Below, in pieces: positions 8,575 through 24,589 of a stretch of DNA of 33,046 nucleotides (within the stretch, counting starts at the first letter, position 1; the number at the start of each line of letters is the position of its first letter). The notes under the pieces were generated by a model. That model ran no database searches. It was not told the origin of the DNA and worked only from the letters and a program-made list of their open reading frames with translations. A program made the translations under genes and the position numbers. Source of the stretch: Escherichia coli (GTDB lineage: Bacteria > Pseudomonadota > Gammaproteobacteria > Enterobacterales > Enterobacteriaceae); assembly GCF_003334815.1 (NCBI RefSeq), contig NZ_QOWO01000041.1, one strand, 5' to 3'.

Positions 8575-8590
8575 GAGCAATTAACTATTT

Positions 8591-8795
<205 letters not shown>

Positions 8796-19927: not shown

Positions 19928-20716
19928 ATGCAGGCCGAAATCCTTCTCACCCTTAAGCTCCAACAAAAATTATTCGCCGACCCGCGCCGCATTTCGCTAC
20001 TAAAACACATTGCGCTTTCCGGTTCCATTAGCCAGGGAGCGAAAGATGCCGGTATTAGCTATAAAAGCGCCTGGGATGCCATTAACGAGATGAATCAGTT
20101 AAGTGAGCATATTCTGGTCGAGCGCGCAACAGGCGGTAAAGGTGGCGGCGGCGCAGTACTGACCCGCTATGGTCAGCGACTGATTCAGCTCTATGACTTA
20201 CTGGCGCAAATCCAGCAAAAAGCCTTTGATGTGTTAAGTGACGATGACGCCCTGCCGCTGAACAGCCTGCTGGCCGCGATCTCACGTTTTTCACTGCAAA
20301 CCAGCGCCCGTAACCAGTGGTTCGGTACCATCACCGCCCGCGATCATGATGACGTTCAACAGCATGTTGATGTCTTACTGGCTGACGGAAAAACACGCCT
20401 GAAAGTCGCAATTACCGCACAAAGCGGCGCGCGTCTGGGGCTGGATGAAGGCAAAGAAGTGTTGATATTGCTAAAAGCGCCGTGGGTAGGTATTACTCAG
20501 GACGAGGCGGTCGCGCAAAACGCTGACAACCAATTACCGGGTATTATTAGTCATATTGAGCGCGGCGCAGAGCAGTGCGAAGTATTAATGGCGCTACCCG
20601 ACGGGCAAACACTGTGCGCCACAGTGCCGGTAAATGAAGCGACTTCTCTTCAGCAAGGACAGAATGTCACGGCCTACTTTAATGCCGACAGCGTGATTAT
20701 CGCCACGCTGTGCTAA
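19928..20716 (+). CDS. modE: ModE molybdate-responsive transcriptional regulator (262 aa)
   Basis: MQAEILLTLKLQQKLFADPRRISLLKHIALSGSISQGAKDAGISYKSAWDAINEMNQL... with C-terminal Mop domains. Confidence 0.93.
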   Translation: MQAEILLTLKLQQKLFADPRRISLLKHIALSGSISQGAKDAGISYKSAWDAINEMNQLSEHILVERATGGKGGGGAVLTRYGQRLIQLYDLLAQIQQKAFDVLSDDDALPLNSLLAAISRFSLQTSARNQWFGTITARDHDDVQQHVDVLLADGKTRLKVAITAQSGARLGLDEGKEVLILLKAPWVGITQDEAVAQNADNQLPGIISHIERGAEQCEVLMALPDGQTLCATVPVNEATSLQQGQNVTAYFNADSVIIATLC

Positions 20717-20783
20717 GCGTGTTGACAATTTGTTATGAAACACGTATCCCTGTCAGTAATCGCTGCACAAAGTGGGATATAAA

Positions 20784-22256
20784 ATGTCATCGTTGCAAAT
20801 TTTGCAAGGCACGTTTCGTCTTAGCGACACAAAAACGCTGCAATTGCCTCAGCTAACGTTAAACGCGGGTGATAGTTGGGCGTTTGTCGGTTCGAATGGA
20901 AGCGGGAAATCGGCCCTGGCCCGCGCGCTGGCGGGGGAACTTCCGCTTTTGAAAGGTGAACGGCAAAGCCAGTTTTCCCACATCACTCGTCTCTCCTTCG
21001 AGCAATTGCAAAAACTCGTCAGCGACGAATGGCAGCGGAATAACACCGATATGCTCGGCCCTGGCGAAGATGACACCGGACGCACTACGGCTGAGATCAT
21101 TCAGGATGAAGTAAAGGATGCACCGCGTTGCATGCAACTGGCGCAGCAGTTCGGTATTACCGCCCTCCTCGACCGACGCTTTAAATACCTTTCCACTGGC
21201 GAGACGCGAAAAACCCTGCTGTGTCAGGCGCTGATGTCGGAGCCTGACTTGTTGATTCTTGATGAGCCGTTCGATGGCCTGGATGTTGCCTCACGTCAGC
21301 AGCTGGCTGAGCGACTCGCCTCGTTACATCAGTCCGGTATTACTCTGGTACTGGTGCTCAATCGCTTCGATGAGATCCCGGAGTTTGTCCAGTTTGCTGG
21401 CGTGCTGGCGGATTGCACGTTAGCGGAAACTGGCGCTAAAGAGGAACTGCTCCAACAAGCACTCGTCGCGCAACTGGCGCATAGTGAACAGCTTGAAGGT
21501 GTGCAACTGCCGGAGCCGGATGAACCTTCAGCACGTCACGCCTTACCCGCCAACGAACCGCGCATTGTGCTGAACAATGGCGTGGTTTCTTATAACGATC
21601 GCCCCATTCTTAATAACCTTAGCTGGCAGGTGAATCCAGGCGAACACTGGCAAATTGTCGGGCCAAATGGTGCAGGAAAATCGACGTTATTAAGCCTGGT
21701 TACTGGCGATCATCCGCAAGGTTACAGCAACGATTTGACGCTTTTCGGACGACGTCGCGGCAGCGGCGAAACCATCTGGGATATCAAAAAGCATATCGGT
21801 TACGTCAGCAGTAGTTTGCATCTGGATTACCGGGTCAGCACTACCGTGCGTAATGTGATTCTTTCTGGCTATTTTGATTCGATTGGCATTTATCAGGCCG
21901 TTTCGGATCGCCAGCAAAAACTGGTGCAGCAGTGGCTGGATATTCTCGGCATTGATAAACGCACGGCTGACGCTCCGTTCCATAGTCTTTCCTGGGGACA
22001 GCAGCGTCTGGCGCTGATTGTCCGCGCACTGGTGAAACATCCGACGTTGCTTATTCTCGATGAACCACTACAGGGGCTTGATCCGCTGAATCGCCAGCTT
22101 ATCCGCCGTTTTGTTGATGTGCTGATTAGCGAAGGTGAAACGCAATTGTTGTTTGTTTCGCACCACGCTGAAGATGCGCCTGCCTGTATTACCCATCGTC
22201 TTGAGTTCGTGCCGGACGGTGGACTCTATCGCTATGTGCTGACAAAAATATATTGA
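20784..22256 (+). CDS. modF: ModF, ABC-type ATPase with two nucleotide-binding domains (490 aa)
   Basis: ORF 20772-22256 trimmed to ATG 20784 (MSSLQILQG...). Two Walker A motifs (GSNGSGKS, GPNGAGKS). Confidence 0.9.
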   Translation: MSSLQILQGTFRLSDTKTLQLPQLTLNAGDSWAFVGSNGSGKSALARALAGELPLLKGERQSQFSHITRLSFEQLQKLVSDEWQRNNTDMLGPGEDDTGRTTAEIIQDEVKDAPRCMQLAQQFGITALLDRRFKYLSTGETRKTLLCQALMSEPDLLILDEPFDGLDVASRQQLAERLASLHQSGITLVLVLNRFDEIPEFVQFAGVLADCTLAETGAKEELLQQALVAQLAHSEQLEGVQLPEPDEPSARHALPANEPRIVLNNGVVSYNDRPILNNLSWQVNPGEHWQIVGPNGAGKSTLLSLVTGDHPQGYSNDLTLFGRRRGSGETIWDIKKHIGYVSSSLHLDYRVSTTVRNVILSGYFDSIGIYQAVSDRQQKLVQQWLDILGIDKRTADAPFHSLSWGQQRLALIVRALVKHPTLLILDEPLQGLDPLNRQLIRRFVDVLISEGETQLLFVSHHAEDAPACITHRLEFVPDGGLYRYVLTKIY

Positions 22257-22422
22257 GTCGGTAGTGCTGACCTTGCCGGAGGCGGCCTTAGCGCCCTCTC
22301 CGGCCAACGGTTCGACGCATGCAGGCATGAAACCGCGTCTTTTTTCAGATAAAAAGCGCAATCATTCATAAACCCTCTGTTTTATAATCACTTAATCGCG
22401 CATAAAAAACGGCTAAATTCTT

Positions 22423-22438
22423 GTGTAAACGATTCCAC
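22423..22438. promoter_or_regulatory. gal external operator OE (GalR/GalS site)
   Basis: GTGTAAACGATTCCAC, upstream of the gal promoters. Confidence 0.7.
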
Positions 22439-22442
22439 TAAT

Positions 22443-22490
22443 TTATTCCATGTCACACTTTTCGCATCTTTGTTATGCTATGGTTATTTC
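22443..22490 (+). promoter_or_regulatory. gal P1/P2 overlapping promoters with CRP site
   Basis: CRP half-site TGTCACA at 22451-22457; overlapping -10 elements TATGCT / TATGGT at 22474-22484. Confidence 0.6.
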
Positions 22491-22516
22491 ATACCATAAG
22501 CCTAATGGAGCGAATT

Positions 22517-23533
22517 ATGAGAGTTCTGGTTACCGGTGGTAGCGGTTACATTGGAAGTCATACCTGTGTGCAATTACTGCAAAACGGTCATGATGTCATC
22601 ATTCTTGATAACCTCTGTAACAGTAAGCGCAGCGTACTGCCTGTTATCGAGCGTTTAGGCGGCAAACATCCAACGTTTGTTGAAGGCGATATTCGTAACG
22701 AAGCGTTGATGACCGAGATCCTGCACGATCACGCTATCGACACCGTGATCCACTTCGCCGGGCTGAAAGCCGTGGGCGAATCGGTACAAAAACCGCTGGA
22801 ATATTACGACAACAATGTCAACGGCACTCTGCGCCTGATTAGCGCCATGCGCGCCGCTAACGTCAAAAACTTTATTTTTAGCTCCTCCGCCACCGTTTAT
22901 GGCGATCAGCCCAAAATTCCATACGTTGAAAGCTTCCCGACCGGCACACCGCAAAGCCCTTACGGCAAAAGCAAGCTGATGGTGGAACAGATCCTCACCG
23001 ATCTGCAAAAAGCCCAGCCGGACTGGAGCATTGCCCTGCTGCGCTACTTCAACCCGGTTGGCGCGCATCCGTCGGGCGATATGGGCGAAGATCCGCAAGG
23101 CATTCCGAATAACCTGATGCCATACATCGCCCAGGTTGCTGTAGGCCGTCGCGACTCGCTGGCGATTTTTGGTAACGATTATCCGACCGAAGATGGTACT
23201 GGCGTACGCGATTACATCCACGTAATGGATCTGGCGGACGGTCACGTCGTGGCGATGGAAAAACTGGCGAACAAGCCAGGCGTACACATCTACAACCTCG
23301 GCGCTGGCGTAGGCAACAGCGTGCTGGACGTGGTTAATGCCTTCAGCAAAGCCTGCGGCAAACCGGTTAATTATCATTTTGCACCGCGTCGCGAGGGCGA
23401 CCTTCCGGCCTACTGGGCGGACGCCAGCAAAGCCGACCGTGAACTGAACTGGCGCGTAACGCGCACACTCGATGAAATGGCGCAGGACACCTGGCACTGG
23501 CAGTCACGCCATCCACAGGGATATCCCGATTAA
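22517..23533 (+). CDS. galE: UDP-glucose 4-epimerase (338 aa)
   Basis: ORF 22475-23533 trimmed to ATG 22517 (MRVLVTGGSGYIGSH..., Rossmann GxxGxxG). Catalytic YGKSK motif present. Confidence 0.93.
   Translation: MRVLVTGGSGYIGSHTCVQLLQNGHDVIILDNLCNSKRSVLPVIERLGGKHPTFVEGDIRNEALMTEILHDHAIDTVIHFAGLKAVGESVQKPLEYYDNNVNGTLRLISAMRAANVKNFIFSSSATVYGDQPKIPYVESFPTGTPQSPYGKSKLMVEQILTDLQKAQPDWSIALLRYFNPVGAHPSGDMGEDPQGIPNNLMPYIAQVAVGRRDSLAIFGNDYPTEDGTGVRDYIHVMDLADGHVVAMEKLANKPGVHIYNLGAGVGNSVLDVVNAFSKACGKPVNYHFAPRREGDLPAYWADASKADRELNWRVTRTLDEMAQDTWHWQSRHPQGYPD
22536..22551. promoter_or_regulatory. gal internal operator OI within galE
   Basis: GTGGTAGCGGTTACAT inside the first codons of galE. Confidence 0.65.
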
Positions 23534-23542
23534 GGAACGACC

Positions 23543-24589
23543 ATGACGCAATTTAATCCCGTTGATCATCCACATCGCCGCTACAACCCGCTCACCGGGC
23601 AATGGATTCTGGTTTCACCGCACCGCGCTAAGCGCCCCTGGCAGGGGGCGCAGGAAACGCCAGCCAAACAGGTGTTACCTGCGCACGATCCAGATTGCTT
23701 CCTCTGCGCAGGTAATGTGCGGGTGACAGGCGATAAAAACCCCGATTACACCGGGACTTACGTTTTCACTAATGACTTTGCGGCTTTGATGTCTGACACG
23801 CCAGATGCGCCAGAAAGTCACGATCCGCTGATGCGTTGCCAGAGCGCGCGCGGCACCAGCCGGGTGATCTGCTTTTCACCGGATCACAGTAAAACGCTGC
23901 CAGAGCTCAGCGTTGCAGCATTGACGGAAATCGTCAAAACCTGGCAGGAGCAAACCGCAGAACTGGGGAAAACGTACCCATGGGTGCAGGTTTTTGAAAA
24001 CAAAGGCGCGGCGATGGGCTGCTCTAACCCGCATCCGCACGGTCAGATTTGGGCAAATAGCTTCCTGCCTAACGAAGCTGAGCGCGAAGACCGCCTGCAA
24101 AAAGAATATTTTGCCGAACAGAAATCACCAATGCTGGTGGATTATGTTCAGCGCGAGCTGGCAGACGGTAGCCGTACCGTTGTCGAAACCGAACACTGGT
24201 TAGCCGTCGTGCCTTACTGGGCTGCCTGGCCGTTCGAAACGCTACTGCTGCCCAAAGCCCACGTTTTACGGATCACCGATTTGACCGACGCCCAGCGCAG
24301 CGATCTGGCGCTGGCGTTGAAAAAGCTGACCAGTCGTTATGACAACCTCTTCCAGTGCTCCTTCCCCTACTCTATGGGCTGGCACGGCGCGCCATTTAAT
24401 GGCGAAGAGAATCAACACTGGCAGCTGCACGCGCACTTTTATCCGCCTCTGCTGCGCTCCGCCACCGTACGTAAATTTATGGTTGGTTATGAAATGCTGG
24501 CAGAGACCCAGCGAGACCTGACCGCAGAACAGGCAGCAGAGCGTTTGCGCGCAGTCAGCGATATCCATTTTCGCGAATCCGGAGTGTAA
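23543..24589 (+). CDS. galT: Galactose-1-phosphate uridylyltransferase (348 aa)
   Basis: HPH motif (NPHPHGQIW) and Cys-rich zinc site (CFLCAGN). Confidence 0.93.

Follow-up and report, generated by a model that had tools for sequence, protein, structure and literature searches.

The imperfect, GC-rich palindrome that follows modF in the stretch of Escherichia coli DNA analyzed here (33,046 nucleotides, hereafter the window) is REP71, a Y-type REP that stands alone in the modF 3′ UTR and has partly degenerated. It is a known and ordinary element, transcribed within the modEF 3′ UTR and able to form a stable hairpin there. From our analysis of the locus, the most likely arrangement is that the modEF transcript ends at a weak terminator or through Rho, with REP71 acting as a barrier to 3′ exonucleases. 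We hold this explanation as a whole, that is, the identity of the region as REP71 and a BIME remnant together with the role that we infer for it at the modEF 3′ end, with high confidence. As an annotated REP of a well-studied family, for which a standard mechanism is proposed, REP71 has little significance in itself; the locus lends itself to testing how the insertion of REPs reshapes 3′ ends and shields a promoter downstream, in this case that of the classic gal control region.

Relative to the K-12 map the window runs as the reverse complement, and a K-12 coordinate is 814572 minus the window position, a conversion that is valid across the modF–galE spacer because a single substitution, with no indel, separates the two sequences there. 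With 331 nt surrounding the hairpin as query, 5392 of 5426 complete E. coli genomes gave one match each, and in these the upstream gene end is annotated as that of modF. In the window, modE occupies 19928–20716 and modF 20784–22256 on the + strand (within an open reading frame at 20772–22256, and named by the RefSeq annotation of identical sequence), with the TGA stop codon at 22254–22256; galE (22517–23533, ATG at 22517) and galT (23543–24589) follow. The gal operator OE, GTGTAAACGATTCCAC at 22423–22438 (+ strand), lies outside REP71 and serves as context only. Its midpoint is 60.5 nt upstream of 22491, where gal P1 starts, and it is invariant or nearly so across genera, and the gal control region is nearly invariant within E. 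coli. OE begins 118 nt after the hairpin, so the sequence-only reading, made before this analysis, was right to place the palindrome just upstream of the gal operator.

The palindrome itself, GCCGGAGGCGGCCTTAGCGCCCTCTCCGGC at 22275–22304 on the + strand, has no other match in the window with up to 3 mismatches. Its fold, at −20.4 kcal/mol (z −3.06), has 8 bp and 3 bp on either side of a C/C mismatch and is closed by a 6-nt loop; only 1 of 200 dinucleotide shuffles was as stable, which bears out the earlier description of an imperfect GC-rich palindrome after modF; a wider stretch of 101 nt is unexceptional (z −0.88). The span first given for it, 22257–22330, does contain the palindrome, but its end coordinate excludes the second string that was described with it, AAACCGCGTCTTTTTTCAG at 22330–22348, with a T6 run at 22340–22345. 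Past the modF stop codon, it is 17 nt to the annotated start of REP71 and 18 nt to the first paired base, and an extended stem could begin at 13 nt. Liang, Rudd and Deutscher reportedly found in 2015 that REPs ≤15 nt from a stop codon down-regulate translation of the upstream gene; REP71 lies just beyond that distance by its annotated start and its first paired base, and is borderline if the extended stem is counted.

That the palindrome is a REP follows from both annotation and alignment. The REP annotation of MG1655 in a supplementary table of Harris et al. 2026 (bioRxiv 10.64898/2026.03.23.713779) contains the row ‘REP71 Tandem 792298 792265 modF galE’, and K-12 792265–792298 is window 22274–22307; the element is therefore already catalogued. 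It is a single Y-type palindromic unit, read on the + strand in the ‘iREP’ orientation, with the GTAG-first orientation on the − strand, and the total reported for MG1655 is 697 palindromic units in 355 annotated REPs. The RefSeq feature table of NC_000913 lists no REP here and none at the obvious ybhJ–ybhC BIME either; as it shows no REPs anywhere, it is uninformative on REP71.

Ungapped alignment of REP71 to the canonical REP/BIME copy at 8590–8635 of the window gives 37 identities in 46 positions, and the best of 200 random 33-kb sequences reached 29 of 46. Canonical family copies lie at 8591–8620 and 8683–8712, and alignment to both of these Y-type REPs runs through the stem-loop and the CTAC tail and on into the next linker for about 11 nt. 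Identity to the published E. coli Y consensus, GTAGGacgGATAAGgCGttCACGcCGCATCcGGCA (PMC2817692), is 27 of 35, and the hairpin has its internal C/C mismatch in the column where the canonical form has C/T. REP71 departs from the 26 specified positions of the Y-REP pattern at 4, which is why a 3-mismatch pattern search missed it and why the sequence-only reading judged it not to be a canonical REP. Taken literally that judgment is right, for the tail at 22305–22308 (+ strand) is CAAC, by allele alignment a degenerate CTAC (the complement of GTAG), yet the alignments, the REP71 annotation and near-canonical orthologous alleles make the palindrome a diverged REP. With Y-type REPs, the constituents of BIME-2, it has in common its sequence including the linker, its imperfect palindrome, the position of the mismatch, an extragenic site in a 3′ UTR between tandem genes (after modF and upstream of galE) and its use as a natural IS1397 target; the window allele differs from the consensus in having CAAC rather than CTAC, a G–C pair rather than T–A and a 6-nt loop. 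As an observation on the canonical copies themselves, the ybhJ–ybhC spacer (window 8590–8790) holds two tandem canonical BIME copies, composed of a Y unit, the linker GGTTCGATGCGATT(T/C) and a Z-type unit.

Two other identities for the palindrome can be weighed against these results. The sequence-only reading had raised another class of intergenic repeat and had proposed a genome-wide search for further copies, and the exact variant has no second copy: it matches once in the window and in a median of 1 place per genome across 5050 genomes. To the letter this is one half of the outcome that the sequence-only reading named as refuting it, and it would suit an undescribed class, but the palindrome belongs to the multi-copy REP family by its clear homology to the Y-type REP and the BIME linker and by its REP71 annotation, and the alignments, with canonical REP alleles at the same site in other strains, refute an undescribed class, to which we accord virtually no credence. 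Hardly more credible is a small nucleoid-associated RNA of the naRNA4 type. The − strand does match Rfam RF02564, the only family that Rfam returned, but at 26.5 bits (E 0.004–0.02) the match is far below the gathering threshold of 59.5, and only the first hairpin, the REP, aligns well; because naRNA4 is a Y+Z2 REP pair from REP325, the match merely reflects REP homology, and the proposed nucleoid role of REP325 is itself contested.

Immediately downstream, a remnant of a tail-to-tail BIME linker, GGTTCGACGCAT, occupies 22309–22320 on the + strand (compare GGTTCGATGCGATTT in the canonical BIME at 8625–8639), and 22321–22339 on the same strand is a probable truncated 5′ end of a Z2-type REP (GCAGGCATGAAACCGCGTC compared with GTAGGCATGATAAGACGCG). 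Here GCAGGCATGAAA agrees with the 5′ end of the Z2 consensus, GTAGGCATGATA, at 10 of 12 positions (P about 0.0013 for a random 46-mer) and the longer stretch agrees at 12 of 19, and in E. albertii GTAG is kept at the site of the Z2 stub (11 of 14). A search after the linker for the complete Z2 partner that would make this a BIME-2 found only the first 12–19 nt to be Z2-like; the 3′ arm of the Z2 unit is missing and the T-run is in its place. The linker match, the match to the Z2 5′ end and the missing Z2 3′ half are together best accounted for by a Y unit followed by a linker and a truncated Z2 in 22274–22339; compared with a BIME-2, REP71 is solitary and its Z2 partner a stub of about 12–19 nt. 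In Citrobacter the modF stop codon is followed by TTTCATGCC, of which GGCATGAAA of E. coli might be an inverted copy; we set this aside as a possible coincidence, since the match to the Z2 5′ end explains the same bases.

The history of the element can be followed in an allele set of 21 sequences, 20 of them distinct, from 19 E. coli strains, the divergent Escherichia genome E69 and E. albertii. Among the Enterobacteriaceae compared, REP71 was found in Escherichia and in no other genus. The near-canonical allele GCCGGATGCGGCGTAAACGCTTTATCCGGC is that of strain 106 and of an O157:H7 strain, and E69 and E. albertii have equally canonical REPs with a terminal CTAC at the same site; CTAC is kept in GCEC19, TUM1226, CS18F, SW07099, EC11, NRZ96052a, E69 and E. 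albertii. Judged by these alignments, the window allele is a derived form, in which CTAC has become CAAC and stem pair 7 is G–C rather than the consensus T–A. Both mismatched intermediates at stem pair 7 are extant, G/A in B2-type alleles and T/C in the GCEC19 type, and this allelic series at one stem pair (T–A, G/A, T/C, G–C) illustrates the decay and compensation of a REP within one species.

Pairing in the REP hairpin is kept in 88.8% of cells across the 20 distinct Escherichia alleles, and for both helices together in 90.6%, against 42–51% in slid controls. The covariation is thin, with one REP-hairpin pair showing a compensatory change and 15 of 500 shuffles reaching the observed score, and predicted stability ranges from −13.5 kcal/mol for the B2 type and −16.1 for K-12 to −19.6 for the window allele and −20.5 for the canonical copy. 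The weak covariation and the poorer folding of several common alleles fit relaxed constraint. The one difference that we note in K-12 MG1655, a G to A change at window 22293 (GCGCC to GCACC), leaves one pair fewer at the top of the stem and takes the stability from −19.6 to −16.1 kcal/mol.

Mobile elements have also acted on the site. E. coli Z1323HEC0355 (NZ_CP148363.1; locus L003, 2559–3990) has its spacer broken by a transposase gene annotated as ‘IS3-like element IS1397 family’, within an insert of 1432 bp that has TGAACTG...CAGTTCA ends, lies exactly in the loop of the REP71 orthologue and is flanked by a 4-bp AAAC duplication; it parts modF from the gal promoters by 1.4 kb. IS1397 inserts specifically into REPs (PMC1525189, PMC3184786), and since the allele that was struck is of the B2 type, which also has GTTG, this natural insertion means that a REP that lacks CTAC is still recognised by IS1397. 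Binding and cleavage by TnpA-REP (RAYT) need GTAG and also a stem mismatch (PMC3333891). The window allele has the stem mismatch (C/C), and with GTTG/CAAC in place of GTAG it is predicted no longer to serve as a substrate for REP transposition.

Beyond the REP hairpin lies a second, weak module resembling an intrinsic terminator (22314–22345, + strand), in which GACGC at 22314–22318 pairs with GCGTC at 22335–22339 across a 16-nt interior and the 5-bp stem, at −6.8 kcal/mol, abuts the U6 encoded at 22340–22345. Across alleles 95% of cells preserve the pairing of this stem, which in E. albertii includes two G–U pairs; the 5′ arm lies in the BIME linker, where the change from the canonical GATGC to GACGC gives the second stem better pairing. 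By its sequence, the second hairpin with its U6 would be a marginal candidate for an intrinsic terminator, much weaker than its orthologues. As a separate observation, on the − strand the second hairpin (22306–22346) folds better, by way of G–U pairs, and together with the REP reaches −34.9 kcal/mol (z −2.85); no U-tract follows it on that strand, and we know of no antisense transcript.

The orthologues come from a ModF scan of 80 loci in Enterobacteriaceae and relatives, in most of which galE follows modF. The spacer between the two genes is about 250–260 nt in Escherichia and about 200–217 nt in Citrobacter, Salmonella, Enterobacter, Klebsiella and others, and the hairpin that abuts the T-run has a predicted −4 to −10 kcal/mol in Escherichia compared with −11 to −18 kcal/mol, in GC-rich stems, elsewhere. 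In the other genera the T-run comes 21–30 nt after the modF stop codon and is followed by TTTTCAGA(T/C)AA; in Escherichia it comes 72–83 nt after the stop, because the REP/BIME remnant intervenes, and in E. coli the same T-run is followed by CAGATAAAAAGCG (CAGATAA), which makes it the orthologous T-tract. Compared with the canonical modF terminators of Citrobacter, Salmonella, Enterobacter, Klebsiella and others, then, Escherichia has the orthologous T-tract in the same slot, followed by CAGA(T/C)AA, and the place of the strong stem is taken by the REP/BIME remnant.

A tentative history of the site, which we consider less likely than not, is the following: in an ancestral Escherichia a BIME may have landed on the modF terminator, removing its GC-rich stem and leaving the T-tract, after which the GACGC/GCGTC stem would have been rebuilt out of the linker (5′ arm) and the Z2 stub (3′ arm), termination would have become partly Rho-dependent, and REP71 would have come to serve as an exonuclease stop. 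If true, it would be a natural and datable case of a terminator switching from the intrinsic to the Rho/REP type. The locus in any event provides a clean comparison between a textbook terminator in other Enterobacteriaceae and a REP/BIME remnant, a weakened terminator and a Rho site in Escherichia. Some of the scanned loci have other arrangements. Longer modF–galE spacers with REP-like hairpins of their own occur in Kluyvera sichuanensis (L054, for example GTAGCCCGGCCAAGCGAAGTGCCGCCGGGTTTAC) and in L042, L048 and L055 (Kosakonia), which suggests, from the sequences, that REPs may have inserted independently in the same 3′ UTR in the Kluyvera and Kosakonia lineages; nine loci from several genera (L031, L034, L040, L041, L050, L051, L053, L057 and L065) have 1–2 kb of extra DNA between modF and galE.

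Two published data sets bear on Rho around REP71. Supplementary file 2 of Adams et al. 2021 has as its only modF entry a bicyclomycin-sensitive Rho region inside the gene (K-12 792926, − strand; window about 21646), so many modEF transcripts may never reach REP71. Downstream, a Rho-utilisation peak from in vitro H-SELEX covers 22360–22463 on the + strand, the modF/gal sense strand (rows M_R10_669 and M_N10_804; K-12 792109–792212, − strand), both with and without NusG. These rows are from the table of Harris et al. 2026 (bioRxiv 10.64898/2026.03.23.713779), in which we deduced the meaning of the columns; the Rho helicase-SELEX method is that of PMC9499579. The peak lies 53 nt downstream of REP71 and has 24 C and 9 G in its 104 nt. 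Sites at which Rho loads are usually C-rich and G-poor in this way. The start of gal P1 lies further downstream, at 22491, and so only modF read-through RNA contains 22360–22463.

The sequence-only reading had also proposed mapping the 3′ ends of modF transcripts. We consulted two published data sets, the Term-seq tables of Adams et al. 2021 and the TERMITe supplements, and neither lists an in vivo 3′ end near K-12 7922xx/7923xx, which may be due to low modEF expression. To the letter this outcome goes against the earlier proposal, as no end is listed at the hairpin, but membership in the REP family is established by homology. A full-text literature search on a modF–galE terminator returned nothing relevant.

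Within this setting we propose the following course of events. RNA polymerase would transcribe through REP71, and part of the transcripts would stop at the weak hairpin and U6 at 22314–22345. The remainder would be stopped by Rho loaded on the C-rich, G-poor segment at 22360–22463, and modEF read-through would thereby be kept out of the gal promoter region. Exonucleases acting in the 3′-to-5′ direction would then shorten the tails as far as the stable REP71 hairpin (about −20 kcal/mol), and this hairpin would define and protect the 3′ end of modEF mRNA.

The proposal follows the general behaviour of REPs. According to Dar and Sorek 2018 (PMC6061677), transcripts terminated by Rho are trimmed to 3′ ends that lie at stable stem-loops, REPs among them, and REP71 shares with these protective 3′ stem-loops a stable stem-loop with no adjacent U-tract and a region of C>G with a Rut signal just downstream; it differs in having a weak U6 terminator between its hairpin and the Rut region. 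REP325 (yjdM–yjdN) acts as a partial Rho-dependent terminator and an mRNA stabiliser (bioRxiv 10.64898/2026.03.23.713779). Like REP71 it is a REP of a 3′ UTR, situated between genes in tandem and close to a site of Rho involvement. We propose the same mechanism for REP71; REP325 has 12 palindromic units and direct experimental support, whereas REP71 is one unit whose role we infer. The effects of REPs on mRNA half-life are reported to be context-dependent and often absent, with no uniform effect genome-wide.

The function of the hairpin can be read in two other ways. The sequence-only reading thought that it may be the modF terminator, which in the strict sense would make REP71 itself a Rho-independent terminator of modF. 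A stable GC-rich hairpin of −20.4 kcal/mol placed 18 nt past the stop codon would have the right form, and a few REPs are known from the literature to double as intrinsic terminators (‘REPt’ elements), but most REPs have no poly-U and are not intrinsic terminators, and REP71 is among those without, being followed by CAACGGUUCGACG, with the T6 run 35 nt further downstream. A scan of 21500–23000 for consensus promoters and terminators was empty, a negative result that is weak since the scan misses the known gal promoters, and its loop limit of 3–8 nt excludes the second hairpin. We therefore regard this version as improbable; what does survive of the earlier suggestion is that the T6 run, which belongs to the separate weak hairpin, is orthologous to the T-tract of true modF terminators. 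Considerably more plausible, and a serious alternative although less likely than not in our view, is that REP71 is a neutral, decaying fossil and that modEF termination is wholly the work of the weak hairpin with its U6 and of Rho. The lost CTAC motif, the weakened stems of common alleles, the tolerated IS1397 insertion and the lack of a uniform REP effect on half-life in the literature are what such a fossil would present, as is the variability of the 121-nt region, which is 83.6 to 100% identical within E. coli next to an almost invariant gal control region; yet E. albertii and 5392 of 5426 complete E. coli genomes have kept the element in place, its pairing survives in the 90.6% of cells given above, and both mismatched intermediates are extant for the stem pair that is T–A in canonical alleles and G–C here. 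We prefer REP71 as a 3′-exonuclease barrier downstream of which modEF transcripts would end at the weak terminator or by Rho.

A last observation concerns the spacer between this region and gal OE. The sequence CTGTTTTATAAT at 22377–22388 contains a perfect TATAAT at 22383–22388, and the motif TTG(A/T)TTTA(N)AAT is kept in most genera in which galE directly follows modF, at a fixed spacing of 34–35 nt upstream of gal OE and at about −108 from gal P1. This motif upstream of gal OE could serve as the −10 element of a promoter or be bound by a protein.
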